Source: Sphingomonadales bacterium
Lineage (GTDB): Bacteria > Pseudomonadota > Alphaproteobacteria > Sphingomonadales > Sphingomonadaceae
Reading direction: 5' to 3'
Assembly: GCA_028871475.1 (NCBI GenBank)
Contig: JAGWMZ010000019.1
Span: 16,102 to 80,101, forward strand
Length of the DNA stretch: 64,000 nucleotides
Within the stretch, counting starts at the first letter, position 1. The number at the start of each line of letters is the position of its first letter. Below the pieces are notes generated by a model. That model saw only the letters and a list, made by a program, of their open reading frames with translations. It did not search any database and was not told where the DNA came from. Made by a program: the position numbers and the translations under genes. Shown piece by piece: positions 13,067 to 61,136 of this stretch.

Positions 13067-13487
13067 GAACGAAGCGACTGACAAAACTTCATACCCCAAT
13101 CGAAACTTTCCAGCCTCCCCGTCGCATGCGGGCGATTGGAGGGCAAGGGGGCGATTCGCGCGCCCAAGCGTGACCCGCCATAGCTGCCAGCGCATACTGC
13201 ATCCGGCATCGCATTCACGATTTCCGCGCCATGTCTGAGGGTTGGTAGCAATGTTGCATGCATTTCGGGGCGAATTTTCTGTGCCTCCACACCCTCGATT
13301 GTTTCACGCCCACGCCTGCTGCACCCATGGTTGAACCTGCGTGCGCCTTAGCCTATATGCGTCATATGCCCCGGCCGCGCGGCGGTGTCGTTTTCTGCGC
13401 GACACAGCCTCGCGCCGGGGCTCTCCATTTTGGGGCGTTCATGCGCTCCGCTCGTCTGACGCTGTTGAATTGATGAAGGATTTGCCC

Positions 13488-14273
13488 ATGTCCCGTCGCC
13501 GCCAGATCTACGAAGGCAAGGCCAAGATCCTTTATGAAGGCCCCGAGCCCGGTACCATCATCCAGTATTTCAAGGATGATGCCACCGCCTTCAACGCTCA
13601 GAAGAAGGGCACCATCAACGGCAAGGGCGTGATCAACAACCGCATCAGCGAGTATGTTTTCACCCGCCTGAACCACATCGGCATCCCCACCCATTTCATC
13701 AAGCGCCTCAACATGCGCGAGCAGCTCGTCCGCCAGGTCGAGATCATCCCCATCGAGGTGGTGGTGCGCAATGTGGCCGCCGGCTCGATCAGCAAGCGCC
13801 TGGGCATCCCCGAGGGCGAGCCCCTGCCCCACACGCTGATCGAATATTATTACAAGGACGATGCGCTGGGCGATCCGATGATCGCCGAAGAGCATATCGC
13901 GGCCTTTGGCTGGGCCACCAATGAGGAGATGCACGACATTTCCAGCATGGCCATCCGCGTGAACGACTTCATGTCGGGCATGTTCGCTGCCATCAACATC
14001 CGCCTGATCGACTTCAAGCTGGAATTCGGCCGCATCTGGGATGGCGATTACAGCCGCGTGATCCTGGCCGACGAAATCAGCCCCGATGGTTGCCGCCTGT
14101 GGGACATGGTGACCGGCGAGAAGCTCGACAAGGACCGCTTCCGTCGCGATCTGGGTGGCGAGGAAGAGGCCTATCAGGAGGTTGCGCGTCGCCTCGGCCT
14201 GCTGGAAAACGAGAACAACGGCCCTTCGGAAGTCTTCGACCTGTCGGTCCATCGCAAGCTGCGGGGCAAGTAA
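13488..14273 (+). CDS. purC: phosphoribosylaminoimidazole-succinocarboxamide (SAICAR) synthase
   Basis: Begins [22 protein letters not shown], the canonical PurC N-terminus. About 261 aa. ATG verified at 13488. Confidence 0.95.
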
Positions 14274-42469: not shown

Positions 42470-42544
42470 TGGGGCGTAGCCAAGCGGTAAGGCAGCGGTT
42501 TTTGGTACCGCCATGCGGAGGTTCGAATCCTCCCGCCCCAGCCA
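42470..42544 (+). tRNA. tRNA-Gln (anticodon UUG), CCA encoded
   Basis: TGGGGCGTAGCCAAGCGGTAAGGCA... is near-identical in architecture to E. coli tRNA-Gln. The anticodon arm is GCGGT-ttTTGgt-ACCGC, the T-arm is GGAGGTTCGAATCCTCC, and the acceptor stem pairs TGGGGCG with CGCCCCA. Confidence 0.95.
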
Positions 42545-42674
42545 GTCGTCGAAATAAACCCCTGATTTTAAAAGATTGACCTCATTTTCCACTTTCGGCG
42601 TCCGCCGAAGGTGTTCCGGGCCTTGTGCCGCATCATGTGACGCGTCGGCACAGGCCAGAACCGAGGACAATCCC

Positions 42675-44603
42675 ATGGCCATTCGCCAGTTGAATCTCAT
42701 CCGCCGCGGCGACACTTTCTATTATCGCGCAAGCTTCTCACTGGATGGAAAGGTTTCGGAGGTAAGGCTCTCGCTGAAGACCGGTGATCGTCGCGTCGCC
42801 CGTCAGCGTGCGATCGAGATGGATCGCCTTCTCAGGAGCCAGTGGCAGCGATTGTCGAGAATGAACGAAGGCATCTCCCCATCAGATCGGCTCTCCATCC
42901 TGCGCGAGGGCGCCATCAGGGCGCGCGACGCCTTCGAGCAGGTTTTCGCGGTTGAGCAGCACGACGGCTACGACGACGCCGATGAGGTTCAGCGCGAGAA
43001 CCTGCGCACGCTGCGCTCCATGGATCTGGTCGTCCGGGACATCTTCGCTCACGGCCTTGGTCCTTCCTTCGGCACGCACGACCATTTCCACTCCCGCTTC
43101 GTCGAAGGGATGCCGGATCTGTCCCTCGAGGACGGCGTCCGGGTGCAGGAGATCCTTTTCGTCGCCGAAGAACTGCGCACCGCGATCCAGAAGGGCGCCC
43201 ATCGGGCTCTGGTCCGTCGGAACCTGGAAGTGACCCCGGCTAACCTGACATTGGCACGTCAGCAGATGATGGCCGGCGTGGCGCTTGCTATGCGCGATCT
43301 CCAGAAGGAGATCGCGGAGCCCCACGCCAAGGTTGACGACATCCTGGCCTCGCTGTCGCTCGACGACCTGATCGCCGGCGCGGGGCGGGAGTCCGATCAG
43401 GCCTCGCAGCCGGCTCCGCCTCCTCCTGCCGCTCCACCGCCAGCGGCCAGGGACATGGCGCCCGCGGCTGCAATTGTCCTGTCCGAGCCGGTCACACCTT
43501 CCGCTTCGGCTATGTCCATCCGCCAGGCATCCGAGGCCTTTCTTGCCGCGAACCCCAAGCTTGACGCCGATGTCGCCGGCGCCCGCTGGACTCCGAAAAC
43601 AAGAAGCCAGTTCGAGGCTGCGATCTTCCTGGCGGACAAGCATTTCGGTTCAACGGCAGATATTCGGGGCATCGAAGAGACCCAACTCGCCAATTTCTTC
43701 CGGGTTCTGCGCAAGCTGCCCAGCTCCCATCACAAGACCCCGGCCCATGCGGGCATGACGCTCGCGGAAATCGGGGCTGCCAACAACGGCGACGGTCTGA
43801 GCCTGGCCACCACCAACCGCCACATGCGCTTCCTCAAGGCCGTCTTCCAATGGGTCGCCAAGCGGACGCCCGGGGCTCCGATCATCGAATGGTCCGCTTT
43901 CATCGAAGCCGACACCCGGCTGAAGCGCGACAAGCGTGACGCCTTCAAGGTCGACGAGTTGGAGAAGCTGTTCCACGGTCCCGTGTGGAGCGGGTCGGAC
44001 TCCCGCACCCGTCGCCTCAAGCCGGGGCACACGGTCTTCCAGGACGCTTGCTACTGGATCCCTTTACTTTTGACCTATACCGGCGCGCGGCGCGAGGAGG
44101 TCAGCAAGGCGATGGTGCAAGACGTCGAACTGATCGACGGCATCTGGTGCCTGCGCATCCGGGTCAGTGAAACCGGGCGGGTCAAGAACGTAGCGGCAGT
44201 CCGGGATGTCCCCGTCGCAACGGAACTCAGGAGGCTCGGCTTCTTGGAATTCGTCGAAGGCGTACGCGCCGAAGGGCACAGCGAGCTGTTCCCGGAACTC
44301 AGCACCGGGGGCGCCACCTACGGCGACGCCTTTTATAAGAGGTGGTGGCGGGCGTTCATGCGCGCTGATCTTGTGCCAATGGGCAAGGACATGCATTCGA
44401 TCAGGCATTTCGTCGCGGTACAGCTGGGAATAAAAGGCGTGTCCGAGGAGCGTCGCGCGGACCTGCTCGGCCACACCCTCGACAGCAGCGAGACGGTCAC
44501 GACCTATAGCGAGCGCGCCCCGCTCGAACTTCTTCTCAAGGTCGTGGACACCATTCCGTTGGTCACCAGGCATCTGAAGAGGATGCCGCTTCGACGACCG
44601 TAA
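42675..44603 (+). CDS. int: tyrosine-type site-specific integrase (large, with Pro/Ala-rich linker)
   Basis: The C-terminal catalytic region has ARREE (Arg), HSIRHF..VQL, LLGH and a downstream Tyr (TTYSER). ATG verified at 42675. Adjacent to the tRNA. Confidence 0.88.
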   Translation: MAIRQLNLIRRGDTFYYRASFSLDGKVSEVRLSLKTGDRRVARQRAIEMDRLLRSQWQRLSRMNEGISPSDRLSILREGAIRARDAFEQVFAVEQHDGYDDADEVQRENLRTLRSMDLVVRDIFAHGLGPSFGTHDHFHSRFVEGMPDLSLEDGVRVQEILFVAEELRTAIQKGAHRALVRRNLEVTPANLTLARQQMMAGVALAMRDLQKEIAEPHAKVDDILASLSLDDLIAGAGRESDQASQPAPPPPAAPPPAARDMAPAAAIVLSEPVTPSASAMSIRQASEAFLAANPKLDADVAGARWTPKTRSQFEAAIFLADKHFGSTADIRGIEETQLANFFRVLRKLPSSHHKTPAHAGMTLAEIGAANNGDGLSLATTNRHMRFLKAVFQWVAKRTPGAPIIEWSAFIEADTRLKRDKRDAFKVDELEKLFHGPVWSGSDSRTRRLKPGHTVFQDACYWIPLLLTYTGARREEVSKAMVQDVELIDGIWCLRIRVSETGRVKNVAAVRDVPVATELRRLGFLEFVEGVRAEGHSELFPELSTGGATYGDAFYKRWWRAFMRADLVPMGKDMHSIRHFVAVQLGIKGVSEERRADLLGHTLDSSETVTTYSERAPLELLLKVVDTIPLVTRHLKRMPLRRP

Positions 44604-46373: not shown

Positions 46374-46973
46374 ATGTCAGGCTTTTCGATCGATCTGTTC
46401 GGCGCTCCCCTGCTGCCTGGTCTCGAAGGGGCCGACGACATCCTTTCCGCAGACGAGGAAGCCGCGCTTATCGCCCGCATCGACGAGCAGGCGCTTTCAC
46501 CCTTCAAGTTCCAGGGATGGGAGGGCAAGCGCCTCACGACCTCCTTTGGCTGGAACTACGACTTCGAGAAGGGAACCGCGGCCCGCGCGGCTGAGATTCC
46601 GGACTGGCTTCAGGCCATCAAGGCGCGGGCCGCCGCCTTCGCCCGACTGCCCGACGGCGAACTCGTCCAGGCGCTGCTGATCCGCTACGATCCGGGCGCC
46701 GGGATCGGCTGGCACAGGGATCGCCCGATATTCGAGCACGTCGTCGGCATCTCGCTCGGCGTCCATGCCGTGATGCGGTTTCGCAGGCGCATCGAGAAGG
46801 GTTTCAACCGCGTCTCGGCGCCGCTCGCTCCCCGCTCGATCTACCATCTGAGCGGCGAAGCCCGGTACGAATGGGAGCACAGCATCGCCGAGATGGAGGA
46901 GACACGCTGGTCCATCACCTTTCGCAGCCTGTCGACGCGGGGCCGACGGGAACTCTATATCGAGCCCGCCTAG
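46374..46973 (+). CDS. alkB: AlkB-like Fe(II)/2-oxoglutarate-dependent dioxygenase
   Basis: IGWHRD (HxD), a distal His (EWEHSI) and RWSITFR (2OG-binding Arg), with the size typical of AlkB repair dioxygenases. Confidence 0.8.
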   Translation: MSGFSIDLFGAPLLPGLEGADDILSADEEAALIARIDEQALSPFKFQGWEGKRLTTSFGWNYDFEKGTAARAAEIPDWLQAIKARAAAFARLPDGELVQALLIRYDPGAGIGWHRDRPIFEHVVGISLGVHAVMRFRRRIEKGFNRVSAPLAPRSIYHLSGEARYEWEHSIAEMEETRWSITFRSLSTRGRRELYIEPA

Positions 46974-47140: not shown

Positions 47141-47833
47141 TCATCCCCGCCAACTGGCTGGGAATAGGCGCTTGAGCGCCTCCACCTTCGGCCGGTCGTT
47201 GATCACGATGTAGGGATAGGTCGGGTTGAGCGCATAGAAGTTCTGGTGGTAGGCCTCGGCCGGGAAGAAGTGCTTGTTGTCCTCGACGCGCGTGGCGATG
47301 GGACGGGCGAAGACGTGAGCCGCCGCGAGCTGCGCGATGTATGCGCGGGCGATCTTGTCCTGTGCCGGGGTCACCGGGAAGAGCGCTGAGCGGTACTGCG
47401 TCCCCACGTCGGGCCCCTGCCGGTTGACGAGCGTGGGATCGGCCACCACCGAAAAGTAGATGCGCAGCAGATCTGAATAGTCGACCTGGGCGGGATCGAA
47501 GACGACCTGGACGGATTCGGCGTGCCCTGTGCTGCCCGTCGAGACCGTCTCGTAGTCGGCGGTCGTCGAGTTGCCTCCCGCATAGCCCGGGGTGGCGCTG
47601 ATGACGCCCCGGACATGGGAGAAGACCCCCTGGACGCCCCAGAAGCAGCCGCCGGCGAAAACGGCGGTTTCGCGATGGCCCGACGCATGCTCGGCGGCGG
47701 CCGGCGGCGGCGCCAGCACGGCGGGCTCCGCGGCGATGCCGGGCGCCATGAAGGCGAGCGCGCCTCCACTGACGCACAACGCGGCGATGAAGGGCATGAA
47801 CCGGGATCTGCGATGGGTGCGAACAAGGGACAT
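47141..47833 (-). CDS. msrA: exported peptide-methionine (S)-S-oxide reductase
   Basis: GGCFWGVQGVF active-site motif and an N-terminal signal-like segment (RRSRFMPFIAALCVSGGALAFMAPGIAA). ATG verified at 47833. Confidence 0.88.
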   Translation of the reverse strand: MSLVRTHRRSRFMPFIAALCVSGGALAFMAPGIAAEPAVLAPPPAAAEHASGHRETAVFAGGCFWGVQGVFSHVRGVISATPGYAGGNSTTADYETVSTGSTGHAESVQVVFDPAQVDYSDLLRIYFSVVADPTLVNRQGPDVGTQYRSALFPVTPAQDKIARAYIAQLAAAHVFARPIATRVEDNKHFFPAEAYHQNFYALNPTYPYIVINDRPKVEALKRLFPASWRG

Positions 47834-48338
47834 GACGGTGAACTCCGTTGGGCGATCCCTCTCAACTACGAAGCGAAGCGGCGGAACGTCACACGGGCTG
47901 CCAAATTTTTTCCTCGATGTCCTCGCGTATCGCGGATGGATCAACCGATGCGGCCCACATCACGTCCGCAGTCGTCAACCTCAGTCGTCGCACCGGCCAG
48001 ACTTGGCGCGTTGCCTATCGGGAGGCTGTGCTTACGGCGATCAGGACAACTGCCGTGAACCGCCCTGCCGCCTTCGGGAAGGTAGCGCCATAGTTCCTCT
48101 CGGGATTGAGTGCGGAAAGCGCCTGACATTCCCTTTTCTGGTGATTGCTCACCTTCCTGCATGTCAGATCGCGCAAGCTACAGAGAACCATCGAAATCCA
48201 TCAAGTCTTGTAAAGACATCTAAAAAACGCATAATAATCTGACGTTATCCATTGGAATCCCTTTTCTTTTATCATGCTTTGTGTCCTGTCTCCTCCAAGC
48301 AACGGACCAAGGGAGATTTTAATCTAAACGACACCTTG

Positions 48339-48359
48339 AATGTCGGATAATCCGACATT
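48339..48359. promoter_or_regulatory. perfect 10-1-10 palindrome, candidate XRE operator
   Basis: AATGTCGGAT-A-ATCCGACATT lies 38 nt upstream of the first ATG of the operon, inside an AT-rich promoter-like stretch. Confidence 0.45.
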
Positions 48360-48396
48360 ATAAAGAAGGAATGTAGGCAAAACGCTCGAGGTCACG

Positions 48397-48741
48397 ATGG
48401 CAACGATCGCTCCCGCAATTCCGAAACCAGACATTTTTCCCCGTGACGACGTCATCAAAGCCTTGGTCGCAGAACTGCTCCAGAATGCAGTCGCCGAGGC
48501 GCAGGTCCGTGGCATCAATCTCCCGGCTGATGTGCCTGGGCGCATGACGGCAGCCGTTCCGATGGATTCACTTTCCGTCGTCGCGACGTTGGTCGCCGTC
48601 GAGGCCGTGGTGGGATTTGAACTGAAGGACAGTCTCGTCCGCACCGGTGGCTACGCCTCGGTCCAAGCTGCCGTCGACCATGTCGTGCCCCGCATCCAGG
48701 CTGTCTGGGAGAAGAAGAAAAGCAAGGGCAAGAAGGCGTGA
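48397..48741 (+). CDS. carrier-protein-like small protein (ACP/PCP-fold candidate)
   Basis: The segment PMDSLSVVATLVAVEAVVGFELKD...YASVQAAVDHV parallels ACP [24 protein letters not shown]...TTVQAAIDYI, including the DSL serine. Its stop overlaps the next start (GTGA). Confidence 0.5.
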   Translation: MATIAPAIPKPDIFPRDDVIKALVAELLQNAVAEAQVRGINLPADVPGRMTAAVPMDSLSVVATLVAVEAVVGFELKDSLVRTGGYASVQAAVDHVVPRIQAVWEKKKSKGKKA

Positions 48742-49106
48742 CCCGCGAAGCACCTCCGATCGAGGACGACGACGCGGCTCGACGCCAGCTCGGCGAGCGA
48801 CTGAAGGAGGCGCGAAAGTACCTCGGCCTGACGCAGGAGGAGGTTGCCGCATATCTTCGGATTGGACGCACCGCCCTCGGAGACATCGAGAGCGGTCAGC
48901 GCCGGGTCGAGGTCATCGAACTGACCCGGCTCGCGAAGCTCTACCGGCAATCGGTGGGATACTTCACCGGCGAGGAGGAATCGTCCGGACTTCCTGCCGA
49001 TGTGGCGCACCTCGCGCGCAGGGTGGCCGATCTGTCGCAAGACGATCGCGACGAACTGGCACGCTTCGCGGATTATCTCCGCACGCGGTCGAGCGGTGAG
49101 CGCTGA
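48738..49106 (+). CDS. XRE-family HTH regulator (ImmR-like)
   Basis: LGERLKEARKYLGLTQEEVAAYLRIGRTALGDIESGQR is a canonical HTH_3 domain. It lies immediately upstream of an ImmA/IrrE-type peptidase. Confidence 0.85.
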   Translation: MTREAPPIEDDDAARRQLGERLKEARKYLGLTQEEVAAYLRIGRTALGDIESGQRRVEVIELTRLAKLYRQSVGYFTGEEESSGLPADVAHLARRVADLSQDDRDELARFADYLRTRSSGER

Positions 49107-49109
49107 ACG

Positions 49110-50120
49110 GTGGCGGCAGATTATCCCAGCGCCGTCAGGGCTGGTGCGCTCGCGGCGGCGCGCCTGCACAACCAACTCGCTGTCCGCGCCGCCGTCGAGA
49201 CCGGAGGCGGTTCCATCGACGTCTTCAGCGCCATCAACGCGCTGGAGCTGCCGCTGCTCCTGCGCCCGCTGAAAGGCCTATTGGGCGCATATCTGAATCT
49301 ACCGGTGCCGGGCGTGCTGGTTACGACCGAACGGCAGATGAGCATCCAGAGGTTCACAGCCGCCCACGAACTCGGCCACTACTTCATGAAGCACGAGCCC
49401 AGCCTCGATGACGAGAGCATCCTGCGACGCATGCCGACGTCTCCCGAGCCCGGCGGACTGTTTCAGGAGGCCGAGGCGGATTCCTTCGCGGTCGCCTTCA
49501 TGATGCCGATGTGGCTGATCCTGATGCACGCTGCCCGACAGGGCTGGCAGGTCCCGGACTTCCAGCGTCCGAACATCGTGTATCAGGCGTCATTGCGCCT
49601 GGGCGCCAGCTACGAGGCCACCTGCAGGACACTCGCCCGTTACGATCTCATCTCCCAGTGGACTATGCACGACCTTCTCAACGTCAAGCCGCGCGAGATG
49701 AAGGTCGATCTCCTCCGGGAGTACCGCCCCCCCAACTACAGGGGCGACGTCTGGCTGCTCACCGCGAAGGACGCGGGGACGCGTATCGATGGCAGCCGCA
49801 ACGACGTGTTCGTGCTCAGATTGAACGAGCATAGTGGTGGTGGCTATCTTTGGGACTTCGAACAGCTGGCGCAAAGTGGTTTCGCCATTGTCCGGGACGA
49901 CCGGGAAGCGATCGATCCCGAGGGGATCGGCAGCCCGGTGATCCGACGCGTGACCGCGGCGATCGAGGATGCCGACCGGGGGCGTATGTCGTTGAGCGAA
50001 CGGCGTCCATGGCAGCCCTCGACCGCGATCGCGGATCTGACCTTCGACTATGATGTCACCGGTCCCGAGCGGGCTGGCCTATCGCGTGCGGAGCGCCGCG
50101 CTCGCCTCGAGGTGGCATGA
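49110..50120 (+). CDS. ImmA/IrrE-family (M78) zinc metallopeptidase fused to a chagasin-like (I42) cysteine-peptidase inhibitor domain
   Basis: HELGHYFMKH zinc motif at 49365-49379 in a COG2856-like context. The C-terminal 105 aa or so carry the three chagasin loop motifs in order: GGGYLWDF (cf. NPTTGYxW), IGSPV (cf. GxGG) and RRPWQP (RPW). GTG start. Confidence 0.75.
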   Translation: MAADYPSAVRAGALAAARLHNQLAVRAAVETGGGSIDVFSAINALELPLLLRPLKGLLGAYLNLPVPGVLVTTERQMSIQRFTAAHELGHYFMKHEPSLDDESILRRMPTSPEPGGLFQEAEADSFAVAFMMPMWLILMHAARQGWQVPDFQRPNIVYQASLRLGASYEATCRTLARYDLISQWTMHDLLNVKPREMKVDLLREYRPPNYRGDVWLLTAKDAGTRIDGSRNDVFVLRLNEHSGGGYLWDFEQLAQSGFAIVRDDREAIDPEGIGSPVIRRVTAAIEDADRGRMSLSERRPWQPSTAIADLTFDYDVTGPERAGLSRAERRARLEVA

Positions 50121-50803
50121 TGGCAACGATTGAGATCGAGGTCGATTTGCGGGAGCGTTTCGGCCCCGCCCGCGACCAGGGCCCGCGACCGACTTGCCTG
50201 GCTTTTGCGACAAGCGACAACCACGCCGGACTTCGCGCGGGCTGGCAGCCGCTCTCGTGTGAATATCTCTACTTCCACGCTCAGCGCCGCGCCGGCCGGT
50301 TGCCAGGGCAAGGGGCCGTGCTCCCGGCTATGCTGGAGGCCCTGCGCGGTGACGGGCAGCCGGTTGAAGCCGGCTGGCCCTATCTGGACGCCTCGCCGCC
50401 GGAAGGCGACGCTTGGAAGCCGCCAATCGAGGTCGGATCATGCTACGGGCGCGTCGGTGTCGCGTCGCAGCCGGACGTTAGCGGCGTTCGCAGCATGCTC
50501 TCGCTGGGCCATCCCATAGTCGTGCTTTCGATGCTCTCGCGCTCATTCTTCAGGCCGGTTGACGGCGCGGTTGCGCCCGTACCGGGAGAGCAGCCGGAAC
50601 CGAGCCAGCGCCATGCGGTCGTCGCCGTCGGCCACGGCAGGGTTGACGGTGAACCGGCGACGCTCGTTCGGAACAGCTGGGGACCCGGGTGGGGGCTCGA
50701 TGGGCACGCATGGCTCACAGACGCATTTCTCGCACCCCGCATCTTCGCCACAGCCACGTTAATGGAGGAAGTGAATGTACCTTCCCGTGCCATCGCAGCC
50801 TGA
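50117..50803 (+). CDS. papain-like (C1 family) cysteine peptidase, no signal peptide, no prodomain
   Basis: DQGPRPTCLAF parallels NQGSCGSCWAF (oxyanion Gln plus catalytic Cys27). HAVVAVGHG parallels HAVAAVGYG. VRNSWGPGWGLDGHAWL parallels IKNSWGTGWGENGYIRI. ATGA overlap with the preceding gene. Confidence 0.78.
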   Translation: MMATIEIEVDLRERFGPARDQGPRPTCLAFATSDNHAGLRAGWQPLSCEYLYFHAQRRAGRLPGQGAVLPAMLEALRGDGQPVEAGWPYLDASPPEGDAWKPPIEVGSCYGRVGVASQPDVSGVRSMLSLGHPIVVLSMLSRSFFRPVDGAVAPVPGEQPEPSQRHAVVAVGHGRVDGEPATLVRNSWGPGWGLDGHAWLTDAFLAPRIFATATLMEEVNVPSRAIAA

Positions 50804-51554
50804 CTGCATCTCCGCATGGCTCAAGGCGGTTCGCCTCGTCGACGCCGAGACCGGCCACCACGCCCACAACGTGATCATCGACGTCGAGGATCCGACGGCG
50901 CGGGCGTCGATGTCGGACCCTGCGGTTGCGGCGGTCAGCCAGTTCCTCGCCGACCACGACAAGAAGCCTGTCGAGACCGTGGCGAACACCATCTTCCCGG
51001 CTGGGCTCTACACCCGATACGGCGCCCCCGCCTTCTTCGACAGGTTCCGGGAGGATGTCCTTCCGAAGGTCCGTCGCTCCGAGGATTGGTCCGGCTACTA
51101 TTTCGAACGGATGATGCATCTGCCTCAGGTCGAGGGCGATCCGATCAACCAGCTCTGGGAGATCGTCGGGCGGCTGCGAAACCCCAATGTGCGGGCGCTG
51201 AACAAGTTCGAGCTGAGCATCTTCGATGCCGCGCGGGACGTGAACGACTCGCCATACGGCGGACAGTGCCTGAGCTTCGCCAGCCTGAAGCTGGTGGGGA
51301 AGCCCGATGCGCGACGGCTCACGATGACGGCCTTCTACCGCAACCACTTCTACATCGAGAAGCTTCTCGGCAACCTCATCGGCCTGGGACGGCTACTCAA
51401 GTTCCTGGCGGTGGAAGGACGAGTCGAAATGGGCTCGCTCACGATCGTGTCAACCCACGCGGAGATCGACATGGCGAAATGGACGCGCGACGACTTCCTC
51501 GAACTGGTGCGAACCGCCGATCAGGCGAACGCCGAAGTCTTGGCCGCTGTGTAG
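50775..51554 (+). CDS. thymidylate synthase / dCMP hydroxymethylase-fold protein (divergent)
   Basis: INQLWEIVGRLRNPNVRA...GGQCLSF...LTMTAFYRNHFYIEKLLGNLIGLGRLLKFLA follows the ThyA pattern DQL...LK.NP.SRR...PCH.F.QF...L.C.LYQRS.D..LG.PFNIASYALL. GGAGG lies 6 nt upstream of the ATG. 29-nt overlap with the peptidase gene. Confidence 0.55.
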   Translation: MYLPVPSQPDCISAWLKAVRLVDAETGHHAHNVIIDVEDPTARASMSDPAVAAVSQFLADHDKKPVETVANTIFPAGLYTRYGAPAFFDRFREDVLPKVRRSEDWSGYYFERMMHLPQVEGDPINQLWEIVGRLRNPNVRALNKFELSIFDAARDVNDSPYGGQCLSFASLKLVGKPDARRLTMTAFYRNHFYIEKLLGNLIGLGRLLKFLAVEGRVEMGSLTIVSTHAEIDMAKWTRDDFLELVRTADQANAEVLAAV

Positions 51555-52219
51555 GCGTTCTCGAAGGGCAGCTTCGGCTCGTCCTCGCCGGACACCCCGT
51601 AGAGGCCGAACATGCTATCGATGAACTCGCGCTGCCCGCCATAGCTCGGGTGCCGCACCCCTTCGGTCGGAAGACCGAATTCCGTGAGCGCCAGCTGCGC
51701 ATCCCGTCCGATCGCGATGATCTGCCGCGGCCTGAGCATCTCGATCAGCGCCTCGAGAAGGGGCCAGGTCGCAACGCGTTCCGCGCGCGTGTGGCAGCGG
51801 TTCGAAAGCGGACTATTGGGCTCGTGAGGGTGGAACGGGAACACGTTCCACAGCATCACCGGCTGGCCGATCCGGCTCAGAACCCTCCATGTCACGGCAG
51901 CCGTCCGCTCGGCCACGACTGGCCCCTCCGTCGCCCGCGCCAGCTCGATCCCGCCCATGAGCGCTGCGGCGCTATCCAGGTGGACCTCGTCGGTAAGGGG
52001 AACGCCAGTCCGGCGCCCTCCCCGGTATCCGAGATCCCGCGCGATCCAGATCGTTTCAACTCTCGTCTCCAGCGCGGCGTCCAGCATCCGCTCCAGATTG
52101 GTCCGCCGCCGCGCCGCCGCGTCCTCGCGGTCATGGACCGGGCACACGTCTGACCACGGATTGAAAACCGAAGGCAGGCGGGCCTCCGAGAGGGCGGTTA
52201 CGAATTCACGGGGCGTCAC
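51521..52219 (-). CDS. uracil-DNA glycosylase-superfamily protein (divergent motif A, HPS motif B)
   Basis: IARDLGYRGGRRTGVPLTDE sits at the motif-A position, with NVFPFHP and GVRHPSYGG (HPS motif B). The GTG start at 52219 overlaps the upstream stop (GTGA). Confidence 0.65.
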   Translation of the reverse strand: MTPREFVTALSEARLPSVFNPWSDVCPVHDREDAAARRRTNLERMLDAALETRVETIWIARDLGYRGGRRTGVPLTDEVHLDSAAALMGGIELARATEGPVVAERTAAVTWRVLSRIGQPVMLWNVFPFHPHEPNSPLSNRCHTRAERVATWPLLEALIEMLRPRQIIAIGRDAQLALTEFGLPTEGVRHPSYGGQREFIDSMFGLYGVSGEDEPKLPFENAYTAAKTSAFA

Positions 52220-53391
52220 TGGGGCAAGTCCTTGATGCGCAGACGGCGGTTGTTCAGGTCTATCGTCACGCGGCCGCGCCGATGCTGCTGGAGGAAGCGG
52301 AACGCCGCGTAGCCCTGGAGGATAGCGTCCTCCCAGAGCCACAATGGGCATTGCGCCACCTCGTAGCCGGCGACGAACTGGCGCACATGCTTCAACATGT
52401 CCAGCGGTAATCCTCCGACCTTCACGTGCGCAAAGAACTCAAGCTGTTGCGCCTGGCCGAACAGCCAGGAGGTGACCCCCTCCTCGATCAGGATCGCCCG
52501 GGCGCCATCCTCCACCTCGTCGATTCGCGGTGCGCTCTTCCGCTTAAGGCGCAGGAGGGACCGGAGGACGGGCGACCAGCCGAGTACCGCGACATAGGCG
52601 TAGTGGAACACGTCATGGAAGCGATAGTCGTCTGGCTCGGCGGAATTGTCGGTGAGCCGATCGCCGACGAACGCCCCGCTCGACCTCTGATATACGTAAG
52701 TCTGCGACCGCACGGTGCGTTCGTAAATGTCGATCGTCATCCTTCTGGGAAGCTGCTCCTCGGGATCCATCGCCGCATCGAAAGACGCCGGATACACCCG
52801 CTCGCGAGGCCAGCGGTCGAAGATCTTGTGGAGATTCTTGACGGCCGCGGCCTCCATGGTCACGCCGGATTCGTTCGCCGCCTGTATGAGCCTCCCCATC
52901 ACCGTTACCAGCCTCCGCCGCAGTTCGGCGGTGACGACGGGGAGCCCCGGACGGAAATCGGCCAGCAGGCCGCCGACTTCGCCGGCAAGCGTCAGCAGGG
53001 TGTTCTCGAATGCCGTGGTCGGGGCCTTCACAAGCGGAATGTGGGCCGGCTGAAGGCTGTGGAACGTAAGGGCGTCGTTGCCGCCCATCACCCACTCCCC
53101 GCCCTCGCGGATGGCTGCCGCGGCAATGTCCGACAGGGAGAAGCGGGTTCGCCGTGAGATGGCGGCTAGATACCAGAGGACGTCGCCGAGCTCCTCGGCC
53201 ACCGCGTCTGCATATCCAAGGTAGGACGCCGCATCACGCTGCTTCTTCTTGGCTACGGAGAGCAGACTTCCCGTCTCTCCGAAGAGCCCAAGCATGGAGA
53301 AGCCGAGGGCTTGGCCCCCTCCCCGCTGGTCCGTCTTGGCCGCCTGCTTGGCGTAGTCCGCCACGGTCAGGGCCTCGAAGTCCTCTCCCAT
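52216..53391 (-). CDS. MazG-like all-alpha NTP pyrophosphohydrolase domain protein with about 230-aa C-terminal region of unknown function
   Basis: The N-terminal domain carries LGLFGETGSL and AVAEELGDVLWYLAAI (EExxD metal motif). A second helical segment ends KNLHKIFDRW. No motif was recognised in the C-terminal half. Confidence 0.65.
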   Translation of the reverse strand: MGEDFEALTVADYAKQAAKTDQRGGGQALGFSMLGLFGETGSLLSVAKKKQRDAASYLGYADAVAEELGDVLWYLAAISRRTRFSLSDIAAAAIREGGEWVMGGNDALTFHSLQPAHIPLVKAPTTAFENTLLTLAGEVGGLLADFRPGLPVVTAELRRRLVTVMGRLIQAANESGVTMEAAAVKNLHKIFDRWPRERVYPASFDAAMDPEEQLPRRMTIDIYERTVRSQTYVYQRSSGAFVGDRLTDNSAEPDDYRFHDVFHYAYVAVLGWSPVLRSLLRLKRKSAPRIDEVEDGARAILIEEGVTSWLFGQAQQLEFFAHVKVGGLPLDMLKHVRQFVAGYEVAQCPLWLWEDAILQGYAAFRFLQQHRRGRVTIDLNNRRLRIKDLPQ

Positions 53392-56150: not shown

Positions 56151-57876
56151 ACCCATCGCCTTCGGCGCGCCTGCGCCCTCCGTCATCGACGACGATCCCG
56201 GCGCCTGCTCGGTGCCGCGTGGCGGTGGCTGGCGCCCCGGCGCGCGATGGGCGCGCGATGGCGCGCTTGCATCAGACAGGGCGAGCCAAGCAGAGATCGA
56301 CACCCTGCCGGCGCACCAGCGCCCGACCATGCGCGAGATGGGCCGCCGCAGCGAAGGTGCGGATCATCCCTTCAAGGCCATGCCAGCTGATGAGGGATCG
56401 CCTGCGCCTGCACCGCGCCTGACCTGGGCCAACCTCTGGGGCACGCCGACCGTGCTGGTCACCCGGACCGGCCAGCGCGACGTGATCACCGCAGCCTGCC
56501 CGGTCGCCATCGGCCTCGGCCTGCATCTCGGCATGGCTGCGGCCCATGCCCGCGCGCTGGTGGCCGATCTGGAAGTGCGCGAGGCGGAACCGCAAAAGGA
56601 CCGCGCTTGGCTCGATCGGCTCGCGCTCCATGCCGTCAGACATTGGACACCCGGCGCCAGCGTTTCAGGGGACGACGGCCTATGGCTGGACCTCTCGGGC
56701 ACCAGCCATCTCTTCGGAGGTGAGGAGCGCTTCTGCCGCCGACTGCTGCGTTTCCTGGCCCGCCTTGGCTTCTCCGCACAAATCGCCATCGCGGGGGCTC
56801 CCGGGGCGGCCAATGCGATGGCGCGCCACGGCGGCAAGGCCATAACGCTGGTCCATCCGGGCCGTGAGGCCGATGCTATCGCATCGCTGCCGCTGGAGGC
56901 GCTGCGGCTTACGCCCGATGTGTTGACGGCTGCAGCACGCGTCGGCCTGGAGCGCATCGCCGATCTCTACCCTATGCCCCGTGGACCTCTGGCCAAACGG
57001 TTCGGCATCGCCACCGTGACCCGCCTCGATCAGGCGCGCGGCATCGTCGCCGAGCCCATCGTGCCGGTGGTGCCCTTCGAGACACCGCAGGCCGAGCGCC
57101 GGCTGCTGGAGCCCATCGGCACGGCCGAGGCGATCGCCCAGGTGATCGGCGATCTGGTCGACGATCTGATGGGCCAGCTGCAGGAGCGCAGGCTGGGCCT
57201 GCGCACCGCCCTGCTCACCTGCCTAGTCGTCGATGGCGGCCAGCAGCGGATCGGGATCGGCACGGCCAAGGCCAGCCGCGATGCCCGCCACCTCAAGCGC
57301 ATGCTCGCCATGCGGATCGATCGCATCGACCCGGGCTTGGGCATCGAGGCGATGACGCTGGTGGCGCCGCGCGTCGAGGACCTGCAGCCTGAAGCCATTG
57401 CCGCCAAGCTGGGCACCGGCGACCGCCCAGCGGAGCTGGCGCCGCTGGTGGATCAGCTCTCTGGCCGGATCGAGCCGCAGGGCTTGTTCCGCATCGAGCC
57501 GAAGGAGAGCGATGTCCCTGAGCGAGCGACCCGTCGCGTCGATCCGTTGTCAAAACCTACAGGCTGGCCGGCATGGAAGCGCCCCGTCAGGCTGCTGGCC
57601 CGCCCGGAACCGCTGGCCCGCGTCATGGCCCTGCTTCCAGACGCGCCACCGCGCCGCTTCGAATGGCGCGGAGCGTCCTATCAGGTTGCCAGTGGCGAAG
57701 GGCCTGAGCGTATCCATGGCGAATGGTGGCGCAACGAGAGGGAGATGTGGGCGGTCCGGGACTATTTCATGGTCGAGGCCCAGACCGGCGAGCGCTTCTG
57801 GCTGTTCCGGCGCGGAGACGGCGTGGAGCCCCCCACAGGCGATTTGTCCTGGTATCTCCATGGGCTGTTCGGCTGA
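56068..57876 (+). CDS. imuB: ImuB, Y-family DNA polymerase-like protein
   Basis: Begins [17 protein letters not shown]. It has the length and position typical of ImuB, and its stop overlaps the dnaE2 start (TGATG). Confidence 0.82.
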
Positions 57877-60800
57877 TGGCCACCTATGTCGAACTTCAGG
57901 TGACCAGCCACTTCTCGTTCCTGCGCGGCGCCTCGGCACCCGAGGAGCTGTTCTCGAAGGCGGCGGCTCTCGGTCACAAGGCGCTGGGCCTGACCGACTG
58001 GGGAAGCGTGGCCGGCGTTGTCCGTGGCTGGACCGGCCAAAAGGACACAGGCGTTCGCATGATCCCCGGCGCGCGGGTCGATCTGACCGACGGCAAGGCA
58101 CTGCTGCTCTATCCCATGAACCGCGAGGCCTGGTCCCGGCTCACCCGCCTGCTCTCCGTGGGCAAGGCGCGCGGCGGCAAGGGCCGCTGCCTGCTCGACT
58201 GGAGCGATGTGGCCGCCCATGCCGAGGGGTTGATCGCCAACCTGGTCCCGGACATGCCCGACGAGCGAACCGTGTCCGACTTGAAGGCCTTGCGAGAGGC
58301 GTTTGGCTCGCATGGCTATTGCGCCCTGTCCTTTCGACGACGCCCCGGCGATGCCGGACGCCTCTATGCCCTAGATGCCATGGCCCGCACCGCTCGCGTG
58401 CGCTGCGTGGCGACCGGCGATGTCCTCTATCACGCCCCCGAGCTTCGCCCCCTGCAGGACGTGCTGACAGCCATCCGTGCCGGCTCAACCATCGACGCAC
58501 TGGGCTTTCGGCGCGAGCGCTACATGGACCGGAACCTGAAATCCCCGGAGGAAATGGAAAGGCGCTTCGCCTCCTATCCCGATGCTATCCAGGCCAGCGC
58601 CGACATCGCGGCCCAATGCACCTTCGATCTGGGCGAGATCCGCTACCAGTACCCCTATGAGCAGGTCATGGCCGAGCGCAGCGCCCAGGATGCGCTCGCG
58701 GCGCTGACCGAGGAGGCCGCCGCCGCTATGTTCCCGAGCGGTCTGCCCGCCCCCTACCGTAGCCAGATCGACCATGAGCTGCGGCTGATCGACAGCCTGG
58801 GCTATGCCCCCTATTTTCTCACCGTCCATTCCATTGTGGCAGAAGCCCGGCGGCGGGGCATCCTCTGCCAGGGACGCGGCTCGGCGGCCAACAGCTGTGT
58901 CTGCTACATGCTGGGCATCACCTCGATCGATCCGATCCAGCATGAGCTGCTCTTCGAGCGCTTCGTCTCGGGCGAGCGCAAGGAGCCACCCGACATCGAT
59001 GTGGACTTCGAGCATGAGCGCCGCGAGGAGATCATCCAGTGGATCTATGAGACCTATGGCCGCCATCGCTCGGCGCTGACCGCCGTCGTCACCCGCTACC
59101 GCACGCGCGGCGCGGTGGCAGAAGTGGGCAAGGCACTCGGTCTGCCGCGCGATCTCACCAAGATGCTCACCGGCCTGGTCTGGGGCTGGTCGGTCGACGG
59201 TATCTCGGATGAGCAGATCGAGAGCCTGAACCTCAATGCCCAGGATCACCGTCTGCGACTATGCCTCGATCTCTCCCGGCAGCTGATCGGCACGCCGCGC
59301 CATCTCTCGCAGCATCCTGGCGGCTTCGTGCTAACGCAGGATCGACTCGATGACCTCGTGCCCATCGAGCCAGCCCGCATGGCCGATAGGCAGATCATCG
59401 AGTGGGACAAGGACGATATCGACGCGCTCAAATTCATGAAGGTCGATATCCTGGGGCTGGGCATGCTGGGCTGCATGAACCGGGCCTTCAACATGCTGGC
59501 GGACATGAAGGGCATCGCCATCGGCATGGCCGATCTCCAGAAGGACGACCCTGCCGTCTATGCGATGATCCAGAAGGCGGACACGCTGGGCACCTTCCAG
59601 ATCGAGAGCCGGGCCCAAATGTCGATGCTACCCCGGATCAAGCCCGCTAAATTCTATGATCTCGTGATCGAGGTGGCCATTGTGCGCCCCGGGCCCATCC
59701 AGGGCGATATGGTCCATCCCTATCTGCGGAGGCGAGAAGGTCGCGAGAAGCCCGAGTACCCGAAACCAGAATTACGCGCCGTGCTCGAAAAGACGCTGGG
59801 CGTGCCCCTCTTTCAGGAGCAGGCGATGAAGGTCGCCATCGTCGGCGCTGGCTTCACCCCCGCCGAGGCCGATCAATTGCGCCGGGCCATGGCGACCTTT
59901 AAGATGACGGGCGGCGTCAGTCATTTTTACGACCAGCTGGTCGGCGGTATGGTCTCGCGCGGCTACAGTCAGGACTTTGCCGAGCGCACATTCAAGCAGA
60001 TCGAGGGATTCGGGAGCTACGGCTTTCCCGAGAGCCATGCCGCCAGCTTCGCCAAGATCGCCTATGCTTCATGCTGGATGAAGCACCACCACCCCGACGT
60101 CTTCTGCGCCTCGTTGCTCAATGCCCAGCCCATGGGATTCTACGCCCCGGCCCAGATCGTGGCGGATGCCAGGAAGCACGGGGTGGAGGTTCGGCCCGTC
60201 TCGATCAACCACAGCCATTGGGACTGTACGCTCGAATACACCAACCGCCGGCACCTGGCCGTGCGCCTCGGCTTCCGGCAGGTGCGCGGGCTGGCCAACC
60301 TGCACGGCGCGCGGATCGTGGCCGCCAGAGGCGATCAGCCCTATGGCAGCGTGGAGGAGGTCTGGCGGCGGGCGGGCGTGCCGCGCGCGGCGATCGAGCG
60401 CCTGGCCGAAGCCGATGCCTTCTCGGCCATCGCGCAGGACCGGCGGCAAGGGTTATGGAAGGTCAAGGGACTGGGTGATGCCCCCTTGCCCCTCTTTGCA
60501 GCAGCGGATGCCAAAGAGGAGCAGTTCTCACCTGAAGGTGTCGAGCCGACCGTGACGCTCATGCCGCTGACCGAAGGACGGGAGGTGGTCGAGGATTATC
60601 GCTCGATCCAGCTCTCCCTGCGGGCCCATCCGGTGAGCTTCCTGCGCGAGGAGCTGGCGGGCATGAAGATCGTGTCCTGCGGCGATCTGCCCAGCCAGCG
60701 CGATGGCCGCAATCTGGAGGTGGCCGGCATCGTGCTGGTCCGCCAGCGCCCCGGCAGCGCCAAGGGCGTGCTCTTCGTCACCATCGAGGACGAGACAGGC

Positions 60801-61136
60801 GTGGCCAACGCCATCCTGTGGCCCGACAAGTTCGAGACCTATCGGCGCCAGATCATGTCGGCCTCGATGATCGCGGTGCGGGGGCGCCTGCAGAAGGAGG
60901 GCGAGATCATCCATGTCATCGCTGACAGGATCACGAACCTGGACGCCATGCTGCGCTCGATCGGGAGGCAGGACCTGCAGCTACCTCACGGGCGCGGCGA
61001 TGGCGCGGCTCAGGGCGGTGGCCCCGACCCTCGCGACCCAGGTTTTCCGAAGGGCCGCGTGCTTTCAGCTCCCGCCTTCAGGACCGATGGGAAGCAGGAT
61101 GAGATACTGCCCGTCCGCAGCCATGATTTTCATTGA
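57876..61136 (+). CDS. dnaE2: error-prone DNA polymerase DnaE2 (ImuC)
   Basis: Begins [20 protein letters not shown] (PHP domain). Also has the Pol III alpha core ([22 protein letters not shown]) and an OB fold. Confidence 0.95.

Follow-up and report, generated by a model that had tools for sequence, protein, structure and literature searches.

A mobile two-operon cassette pairing a metallopeptidase-inhibitor fusion and a papain-family peptidase with nucleotide enzymes is a candidate inducible conflict system

What could join a papain-family peptidase to a repressor, a metallopeptidase and a nucleotide enzyme in one bacterial gene cluster? The question is raised by a locus on contig JAGWMZ010000019.1 of a Sphingomonadales bacterium (assembly GCA_028871475.1), in a 64,000-nucleotide (nt) stretch, positions 16,102 to 80,101 of the forward strand, to which we refer as the window. 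Five consecutive genes on the plus strand, O1 to O5, encode a protein resembling an acyl carrier protein (ACP), a helix-turn-helix (HTH) repressor of the XRE family, an M78 metallopeptidase fused to a chagasin-like (I42) protease-inhibitor domain, a papain-family (C1) cysteine peptidase and a protein with the fold of thymidylate synthase (TS); a convergent operon encodes a MazG-MazG_C fusion and a protein of the uracil-DNA glycosylase (UDG) superfamily. Our analysis supports, with a confidence only a little better than even, a model whereby these two operons make up a self-contained cassette of mobile elements that would act as an inducible conflict system, probably against phages, on pyrimidine nucleotides and DNA bases. 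The model is built from gene content and conservation, and from analogy with characterised switches.

The five open reading frames (ORFs) of the first operon, operon A, and all the junctions between them lie where a preliminary description of this DNA had placed them (Table 1). O1 and O2 overlap in a GTGA at 48738, a gap of 3 nt (49107-49109) separates O2 from O3, O3 and O4 overlap in an ATGA at 50117, and O4 and O5 share 29 nt (50775-50803), with a GGAGG at 50764-50768, 6 nt 5' of the ATG of O5. This geometry is repeated in about 40 non-redundant loci, in which the spacing is -4 or -1 for O1/O2, +2 to +8 for O2/O3 (0 in locus L078), -4 or +3 to +8 for O3/O4 and -29 for O4/O5. The domain assignments that the same description had offered for the five proteins are all upheld by Pfam, PADLOC, alignments, AlphaFold2 (AF2) models searched with Foldseek and profile searches against the PDB. 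Its unit stands as a five-gene coupled set and was drawn too narrowly at the boundaries, because the convergent MazG-MazG_C/UDG operon belongs to it: the conserved unit, about 5 kb in size, reaches to about 53391, or to 53591 if the small ORF upstream of MazG is counted. O5 and the UDG-like gene converge, and their 3' ends share 34 nt in the window (51521-51554); in nearly all related loci this overlap measures 28-34 nt. A generic promoter and terminator scan of the window returned no terminator-like site between the two operons, and convergent transcription may couple or oppose the expression of O5 and of the UDG-like operon.

Table 1 Features of the cassette in the window and of metallophosphatase-TS fusions at related loci (positions without a locus prefix are those of the window)
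Feature	Position	Strand	Basis or remark
Promoter with operator	48336-48364	+	-35 TTGAAT, palindrome-filled spacer, -10 TATAAA
O1, ACP-like (carrier-protein-fold) protein, 114 aa	48397-48741	+	PDB profile search, AF2 model
O2, XRE-family HTH repressor, CapH-like, 122 aa	48738-49106	+	Pfam HTH_3 2.2e-11
O3, M78 (ImmA/IrrE/CapP-like) zinc metallopeptidase with I42 domain, 336 aa	49110-50120	+	Pfam
O4, papain-family (C1) cysteine peptidase, 228 aa	50117-50803	+	Pfam Peptidase_C1
O5, TS-fold protein (ThyA / dNMP hydroxymethylase superfamily), 259 aa	50775-51554	+	AF2 and Foldseek
UDG-superfamily protein, 232 aa	51521-52219	-	Pfam UDG (PF03167) 1.1e-5, 25.9 bits against a cut-off of 24.3
MazG nucleotide pyrophosphohydrolase-MazG_C fusion	52216-53391	-	Pfam MazG_C 6e-81, MazG 1.9e-5
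Small ORF, 64 aa	53397-53591	-	Directly upstream of MazG; membership uncertain
Metallophosphatase-TS fusion	L060:6886-9108	-	Also L039, L062, L067, L071, L076, L078
Metallophosphatase-TS fusion, distant partner operon	L252:8108-10315	-	33% identity

The gene content of the cassette is constant. When one genome per GTDB species was scanned with the O3 alignment, 149 relatives were found and 80 of their loci were retained (loci of this analysis carry the prefix L). O1 to O4 are present in 80/80 of these O3-anchored loci, O5 in 79/80, the UDG-like gene in 75/80 and MazG in 74/80, in the same order and the same convergent orientation; genes that are missing fall at contig ends, except in the decayed locus L037, and 79 of the 80 loci are consistent with a full cassette set in unrelated flanks, mostly of mobile elements. 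Among metagenome loci collected independently with MazG as anchor, the full cassette is present in 46 of the 47 that offer enough room. The preliminary description had treated MazG and UDG as mere neighbours; in this clade they form an obligate convergent partner operon, and the pairing of the core with enzymes that modify nucleotides or DNA bases, which that description missed, is the most informative feature of the locus. None of the integrase, HTH, MsrA and PepSY genes that also surround the cassette in the window recurs in the 80 loci, and the 2-oxoglutarate (2OG) oxygenase recurs in two near-identical ones (L042 and L043). The same architecture is found at 35-50% identity in a prophage-borne cassette on a viral contig (L162). 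Three copies have decayed: in L037 (11008-11796) a deletion has fused residues 1-175 of the C1 peptidase to residues 159-249 of the TS-like protein, and neither UDG nor MazG is present; in L213 (3951-4859) the UDG-like gene is truncated and followed by a helicase; and the distant locus L256 keeps only a fragment of the C1 gene.

At greater distance the five-gene core persists, at about 30-40% identity, while its partner genes change, so that the conservation as a unit predicted for O1-O5 holds both here and in the 80-locus survey. We examined the contexts of eight distant I42 proteins with 29-43% identity over the I42 segment. Profiles match O1, O3, O4 and O5 in L252, L254 and L255, and O1, O4 and O5 in L257, whose O3 served as the look-up query; the HTH component was seen in the Pfam annotation of the called genes and is fused to O3 in L252. 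The partners are a convergent metallophosphatase-TS fusion with HMUDK_hel and Thymidylat_synt genes in L252, co-directional MazG-MazG_C, Nmad1-like, TylF methyltransferase and HMUDK_hel genes in L254, and MazG-like, dCTP deaminase (DCD) and HMUDK_hel genes in L255, where a gene for an OLD-like TOPRIM protein (4605-6470) lies upstream of the core. The metallophosphatase-TS fusion, a calcineurin-like protein of about 740 aa (Thymidylat_synt 3.8e-4), also directly borders cassettes of the window type in seven genome loci (Table 1). Two contexts are exceptions: L256 (6432-6794) has a truncated C1 protein of 120 aa beside cas1/2/4, and L258 (8001-9458) encodes an HTH-M78-I42 fusion of 485 aa with neither a C1 peptidase nor a remnant of one, adjoining a Bub-type ubiquitin-like operon (BubE, ThiF/JAB, Prok-E2_E, Multi_ubiq).

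The exchange also runs the other way, as the pair of MazG-MazG_C and UDG-like genes occurs without the core in L081, at 37-44% identity, together with Nmad2 and a TIR-like protein of 144 aa. This set occupies the psu-int interval of a P4-like satellite, a documented antiviral hotspot (PMC9122126). A search of complete E. coli genomes for the satellite-borne MazG/UDG/Nmad2 system did not find it and returned satellite flanks only. Nmad2 had no tblastn match in the 80 genome loci, and no similarity was seen between O5 and Nmad2 or between O1 and the TIR-like protein.

The cassette is carried by mobile elements. A 21-kb segment of an integrative and conjugative element (ICE) is 96-100% identical in the representatives of 28 GTDB species from at least eight Sphingomonadales genera (L005-L033, e.g. 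L006:1-21008); it encodes TrbB/E/L, TraG and a DUF3363 relaxase and holds the cassette between relaxase and traG. Such identity in sequence points to a very recent and wide horizontal spread. Megablast of the ICE-type cassette against the PLSDB plasmids gave no match. The flanks of 33 other loci contain mainly type IV secretion system (T4SS) and coupling proteins, ParB, ArdC, integrases, recombinases and transposases, and also AbiJ, McrBC and caspase domains; anti-restriction genes of the ArdC type are frequent neighbours. Together with the distant copies beside OLD-TOPRIM, cas1/2/4 and Bub-type operons, the mobile flanks and the AbiJ, McrBC and caspase neighbours make a defence context credible. 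In the window, about 4 kb separate the cassette from a tRNA-Gln/integrase pair upstream of it. The location in a tRNA island, from which a candidate abortive-infection or toxin-antitoxin-type role with the peptidase as putative effector had earlier been suggested, is not conserved: the flanks vary and consist mostly of ICE/T4SS, integrase or transposase genes. Direct repeats of the att type were looked for around the tRNA-Gln island, and only chance-level repeats were found.

A repressor and an ImmA-like peptidase within an integrative element might also serve that element directly, as an ImmR/ImmA-type master regulator of its excision and transfer. The homology to ImmA/ImmR and the position inside an ICE in 28 loci, and near an integrase and tRNA-Gln in the window, are in line with such a role. 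We nevertheless consider it highly improbable, given that promoter and operator stay with the cassette across ICE, prophage and chromosomal-island contexts, that the operator is single-copy in the window and that no conjugation genes lie near the window cassette.

In the model of an inducible conflict system, control would be exerted at a sigma-70-type promoter of operon A whose spacer is filled by an operator. A -35 element (TTGAAT, 48336-48341) and a -10 element (TATAAA, 48359-48364) are separated by 17 nt, and the perfect palindrome AATGTCGGATAATCCGACATT is found at 48339-48359, as the preliminary description had it. Its 19-mer core is present once in the window (0 copies expected from 100 shuffles). 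About 40 non-redundant loci keep the arrangement TTGCAT/TTGAAT - ATGTCGGA-N3-TCCGACAT - CATTATA ahead of O1, while the DNA further upstream is unrelated. A palindrome within the spacer of a sigma-70-type promoter occupies the classic position of a repressor operator, and by analogy we infer that it is the binding site of O2, which would repress the promoter of its own operon. The palindrome being unique within the window, the MazG operon has no copy of the operator ahead of it. A generic sigma-70 scanner did not call the conserved O1 promoter, because TATAAA lacks the T required at position 6 and the pairing TTGAAT/CATTAT gives only 8/12 matches. The 5' untranslated region (48365-48396 and its equivalents in L001-L080) has two clade-specific conserved forms, ...ATGTAGNNAAATCRTGCGAGG... 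and ...GTCYTAGAAAGACACA..., a conservation beyond what a Shine-Dalgarno sequence needs.

The repressor and the metallopeptidase are both of known kinds. O2 is 65-82% identical across the 80 loci, passes the Pfam gathering threshold for HTH_3 and matches the PADLOC models for capH (1.3e-12, residues 18-114 on profile positions 7-98 of 103) and RmrA (4.4e-12). O3 passes the Pfam gathering thresholds for Peptidase_M78 (1.2e-7) and for Inhibitor_I42 (PF09394; 4.7e-7, 30.4 bits against a cut-off of 27.2), and matches capP (7.5e-13). In 19 O3 sequences (alignment A1) the metallopeptidase motif HELGH (H86, E87, H90) and E120/E122 are invariant. The I42 domain spans residues ~230-316 near the C-terminus, with a conserved tail behind it. 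Its versions of the three contact loops of chagasins (NPTTG-like, GxGG and RPW) read EHSGGGYxW, G-x-P (G274, P276) and RPW (R299, P300, W301); they are invariant or nearly so among homologues and are kept at 35% identity in L162 and L252. A search with the I42 segment of 1.84 billion cluster representatives gave 139 matches at E<=1e-10. Nearly all full-length matches are proteins of about 320-357 aa, or of about 453-485 aa with an HTH fused in front; fusion of M78 to I42 is therefore the rule, since the I42 match lies at the C-terminus of nearly all of them.

By analogy with ImmA, IrrE and CapP, a trigger such as DNA damage or infection would lead the M78 part of O3 to cleave the repressor and so turn the operon on. 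O2 and O3 come closest to CapH/CapP, whose models are their best PADLOC matches, and to the related pairs ImmR/ImmA and DdrO/IrrE, in being an XRE repressor next to an M78 HExxH peptidase on a mobile or defence locus, and the likeness to CapH/CapP extends to a repressor-peptidase pair near the head of the operon and, in the cassette, a palindromic operator inside the promoter. CapH/CapP pairs control immune operons in response to single-stranded DNA (ssDNA); in CapP and IrrE, a central HTH and a C-terminal GAF domain form an ssDNA-binding groove, to which in CapP the peptidase domain contributes as well, and many, though not all, CapP proteins have a cysteine-switch loop (PMC13228613). Unlike CapP, O3 carries a domain of the chagasin family and has no cysteine in the corresponding loop, and unlike CapH/CapP operons the cassette has an ACP-like gene ahead of the repressor.

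O4 matches Peptidase_C1 (PF00112) at 3.2e-8, with 34.4 bits against a cut-off of 20.7 and over residues 122-200 only. Q21, C27, H166, N186 and W188 are invariant in 26 O4 sequences, and from local motifs and the known numbering of papain we take them to be the equivalents of papain Gln19, Cys25, His159, Asn175 and Trp177. Neither a signal peptide nor the pro-region typical of C1A enzymes was found in O4, and its N-terminus is not hydrophobic; with the catalytic cysteine at residue 27 there is no space for a prodomain. To judge from its sequence, the peptidase is presumably cytoplasmic. It lies directly 3' of the I42-bearing gene in 80/80 genome loci and in 5/6 informative distant contigs. C1 matches in viral contigs are generic, at 23-33% identity. 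We suggest that the chagasin-like domain of O3 blocks the active site of the co-translated O4 and would thereby tie a latent protease to the switch protein, and that in an execution step O4 might be freed through loss, cleavage or rearrangement of O3. The C-termini of both proteins have a recurrent form: in nearly all sequences O3 homologues end in ...LEAA or ...LEVA (50106-50120 in the window) and O4 homologues in ...AAA, IAA or LAA (50789-50803).

An inhibitor gene translationally coupled to a peptidase gene can be read in another way, as a toxin-antitoxin (TA) or addiction module that stabilises the element, with the C1 peptidase as toxin, the I42 domain of O3 as antitoxin and the nucleotide enzymes as passengers, and with autoregulation by XRE/M78 as in the COG2856-XRE (RosmerTA-like) modules. 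RmrA models match both O2 and O3, the cassette is borne on ICEs, and the Ala-Ala ends of O3 and O4, which resemble ssrA-type degradation tags and would fit unstable TA-like components, could be protease-labile C-termini. Against this, O5 lies within the operon and shares 29 nt with O4 in nearly all loci, and so is no passenger, and a set of nucleotide-enzyme partners stands beside the core in every clade examined. An addiction role by itself therefore seems quite improbable to us; TA and defence roles are compatible, and to that extent it overlaps with the conflict system that we favour.

O5, MazG-MazG_C and the UDG-like protein are predicted to act on pyrimidine nucleotides and DNA bases. The AF2 model of O5 (pLDDT 87, pTM 0.89) gave 386 Foldseek matches in the PDB at E<=1e-3, the best at 1.4e-7 with a TM of ~0.5; the 50 matches listed are ThyA, the CMP hydroxymethylase MilA and one dCMP-binding flavin monooxygenase, and the best viral structural match is a T4-type gp42 dCMP hydroxymethylase (8e-8). 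O5 has no Pfam match and falls under the cut-off of every TS-family model, with NCBIfam thy_syn_methano (TIGR03283) at 2.8e-6 and 27 bits against a cut-off of 174.55. The invariant residues C165, R189 and N200 are placed by hhalign on C146, R166 and N177 of E. coli ThyA, with an E value of only 0.0065, a lead that the catalytic Cys, Arg and Asn of TS may be retained.

GTG 52219 is the start codon of the UDG-like gene and overlaps the stop of MazG in a GTGA. A longer ORF of 276 aa (51521-52351) was rejected because its extra 45 codons contain stops in other loci and because GTG 52219 sits on the MazG stop. A profile of the protein (A6) weakly matches the family-4 UDG TM0511 (E 0.012), and UDG motif B, HPS (H190, P191, S192), is invariant; canonical motif A of the GQDPY or GEAPG type is absent, the conserved stretch at its place being the unusual WIARDLGYRGGRRTG, and the protein is far under the cut-offs of the NCBIfam family-4 UDG models. 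MazG-MazG_C is the first large gene of the convergent operon. It matches PHROG 229 (MazG-like pyrophosphatase) at 2.4e-50, and its profile matches MazG-like proteins and dCTP pyrophosphatase 1 (DCTPP1/RS21-C6) in the PDB at E 0.004-0.015. MazG_C is described as a predicted nucleotide kinase in PMC13092281.

These enzymes allow two further interpretations. In the first, the cassette hypermodifies DNA for the mobile element itself, as an epigenetic self-mark or as anti-restriction on entering a new host: a modified pyrimidine destined for DNA would be the product of O5, MazG-MazG_C and related enzymes, and the UDG-like protein would exchange or police bases. The partners indeed match phage thymidine-hypermodification pathways (a TS homologue, HMUDK, MazG, DCD and Nmad domains), in the viral structure library O5 comes closest to a dCMP hydroxymethylase, and the cassette sits between relaxase and traG in a widespread sphingomonad ICE and often near ArdC. 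Yet no DNA polymerase, glycosyl- or aminoacyl-transferase or aGPT-Pplase is present in the loci examined, no TS-like homologue of O5 was found in viral contigs, a repressor/protease switch with a latent peptidase would be unusual for constitutive modification, and the P4-satellite relative lies in a known hotspot of defence genes. We regard this interpretation as unlikely. With the phage thymidine and cytosine hypermodification enzymes (dNMP hydroxymethylases of the ThyA superfamily, 5-HMUDK and MazG-type dNTPases) the cassette shares a TS-fold protein that has a putative catalytic Cys and a match to gp42, and partner genes that include HMUDK_hel, DCD and MazG; it differs in that its genes lie on bacterial mobile elements under a putative repressor/protease switch and not in a phage replication module.

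In the second interpretation, the cassette is a nucleotide-pool sanitation and repair module inducible by DNA damage or stress, akin to the IrrE/DdrO regulon of Deinococcus, in which XRE/M78 would induce MazG against non-canonical dNTPs, the UDG-like protein for base excision and the TS-like protein for the supply of dTMP, to the benefit of the host or of the element. The relationship of the M78/XRE pair to IrrE/DdrO and to the ssDNA-sensing CapP/CapH, the matches of MazG to the house-cleaning DCTPP1 and of its partner to the UDG superfamily, and AlkB-like, MsrA and DnaE2 genes near the cassette in the window speak for it. The repair-type neighbours, however, are not kept in other loci, the cassette is ICE or prophage cargo with a patchy horizontal distribution, and the partners in other clades (HMUDK, dCTP deaminase, TIR-like protein, Nmad2) belong to a repertoire of hypermodification and defence rather than of repair. 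Moreover, MazG and UDG lie outside the control of the operon-A operator, of which the window holds no second copy, and an intracellular papain-like peptidase with a fused inhibitor would be left unaccounted for, as would an ACP-like protein. This interpretation we judge to be unlikely.

Returning to an inducible conflict system, the effectors might be combined in a 'poison-and-excise' abortive mechanism gated by the lock between protease and inhibitor, a proposal that we advance as speculation and hold to be distinctly unlikely. Infection would fire the XRE/M78 switch; the TS-like enzyme, together with MazG, which would clear canonical dNTPs, and the MazG_C kinase would then produce a C5-modified deoxynucleotide of the 5-hydroxymethyl type, which would enter replicating DNA. 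There the UDG-like glycosylase would attack the modified bases and ruin replicating phage DNA, a part that in other clades might be played by the kinase acting on 5-hydroxymethyldeoxyuridine (5-hmdU) in DNA. The chagasin-locked peptidase would be freed to serve as a further effector or as an activator, perhaps together with the ACP-like protein. If this were true, the cassette would represent a defence family that turns the DNA-hypermodification chemistry of phages on the phages themselves.

Several observations weigh against a defensive role or against parts of the proposed switch. PADLOC has no model for the effector genes, and the assignment to defence thus rests on context and analogy. O3 has no match to a GAF domain, residues 230-316 being I42, and neither O3 nor its homologues have a cysteine between HELGH and E120, the position of the regulatory cysteine of CapP; with both of the features by which CapP senses ssDNA lacking, the trigger of CapP is not transferable to O3. 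In L258 the I42 domain is kept without a C1 peptidase, and the domain may hence be a sensor rather than, or besides, an inhibitor. Inhibitor and peptidase come from one coupled transcript and so are presumably made 1:1. The carrier-like nature of O1 is moderately supported as an ACP assignment. Finally, the repair-type neighbours in the window, the AlkB-like oxygenase, MsrA and DnaE2, would also fit a role in the stress response.

Compared with known systems, the cassette has regulators of a known kind in a combination that appears to be new. No named system of PADLOC-DB v2.0.0 matches the effector genes, O1, O4, O5, the UDG-like gene and MazG all being without a match, and the homologues in L162 and L081 gave no match there except a weak one to TIR. 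The literature searched contains no description of the five-gene system, in agreement with the earlier claim that it is undescribed, nor does it connect inhibitors of the chagasin type to ImmA/M78 proteins, to defence or to conjugative elements. A MazG/MazG-C/NMAD/UDG system, according to PMC13092281, had already been predicted, though not validated, as defensive by DefensePredictor. The cassette thus apparently is undescribed as a system, with regulators of a known kind and a partner operon that was in part predicted before. PMC13092281 also reports experimental protection by the E. coli system 'NTTI', whose domains include Thymidylat_synt, HMUDK_hel and Nmad2, and the tables searched in that paper list neither Peptidase_C1 nor Inhibitor_I42. 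The two systems contain, as predicted or protective defence components, the MazG-MazG_C/UDG pair, or enzymes of the TS-family, HMUDK and MazG types, that are also found in or beside the cassette; they differ in having Nmad2 (in L081 also a TIR-like protein), which the window cassette lacks, and in lacking an operon of XRE, ImmA-I42, C1, ACP-like and TS-like genes.

Two other comparisons bear on the core. In RosmerTA (COG2856-XRE; RmrA/RmrT), as in the cassette, a potentially toxic effector lies next to the regulator that the RmrA profiles recognise. RmrA, however, is a single HTH-M78 fusion with one variable toxin, whereas the cassette pair is usually split and fused only in the 453-485-aa variants; moreover, the M78 protein of the cassette bears a putative C1-inhibitor domain, and its operon runs on into nucleotide enzymes. 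With chagasin and the other inhibitors of cysteine peptidases (ICP, MEROPS I42), O3 shares the Pfam I42 domain and the three contact loops, and an intact C1 peptidase gene lies directly downstream. Known I42 proteins are small, stand-alone inhibitors, and bacterial ones often occur without a cognate C1 peptidase. In the cassette, by contrast, I42 forms part of a signalling metallopeptidase, and the peptidase that it presumably targets is cytoplasmic, has no pro-region and is encoded on the same transcript.

Should the cassette prove to be a working conflict system, it would provide three things for which no counterpart is described in the libraries consulted. The first is an ImmA/CapP-type metallopeptidase whose sensor domain has been swapped for a cysteine-protease inhibitor, and the second a cognate intracellular papain-family peptidase in bacteria as a native target for bacterial chagasin homologues. 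The third would be a regulatory core that has been rewired repeatedly, to a MazG-kinase, a UDG-like protein, a 5-hmdU DNA kinase, dCTP deaminase and ThyA, and newly validated nucleotide-modification defence genes would gain a concrete control module. A cassette of about 5 kb on a recently spread sphingomonad ICE is tractable and suits the study of modified nucleotides and glycosylases in immunity.

O1 is the least familiar protein of the core. Its homologues lie 5' of the XRE gene in 80/80 genome loci, and an Asp-Ser-Leu motif (D57, S58, L59) and a VRTGGY motif are invariant in alignments A3 and A8. The A8 profile, which includes a homologue of 26% identity, gave 57 matches in the PDB, all but four of them acyl carrier proteins (best E 3.8e-4), and aligned the serine of the DSL motif with the phosphopantetheine serine of ACP. 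AF2 (pLDDT 83) folds the protein into a bundle of helices, one of which has Ser58 at its N-terminus, and the top Foldseek matches of this model are ACP domains at a weak E of 0.3. In Pfam nothing lies above cut-off; the gathering threshold of PF00550 is not reached, the best of 24 homologues having an E of 0.043. No phosphopantetheinyl transferase (PPTase) gene is present in the cassette. In L255 an ACPS (PF01648) gene (13408-13758) lies about 2.3 kb beyond the five-gene core and about 0.5 kb beyond the last partner, HMUDK_hel; it could serve the ACP-like protein or be a housekeeping acpS.

Among the other genes of the window, those at 42470-44603, 46374-46973, 47141-47944 and 57723-61136 are, respectively, the tRNA-Gln with a tyrosine integrase, the AlkB-like 2OG-Fe(II) oxygenase, MsrA and the DnaE2-type Pol III alpha. 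At the head of the partner operon, a conserved protein of 63-74 aa overlaps the start of MazG by 1-4 nt in 55/80 genome loci and 41/47 metagenome loci. It has neither a Pfam match nor a meaningful match in the PDB, and from its residue pattern it may be ribbon-helix-helix-like. The 64-aa ORF of the window is collinear with it in a weak match (hhalign E 6e-4, probability 28%), homology is visible at the DNA level, and judging by these similarities the ORF is possibly a diverged homologue. In L162 the small protein ahead of MazG is replaced by one with DUF4031 (6452-6805; 2.7e-26), and an XRE-type HTH gene lies beside it in divergent orientation.

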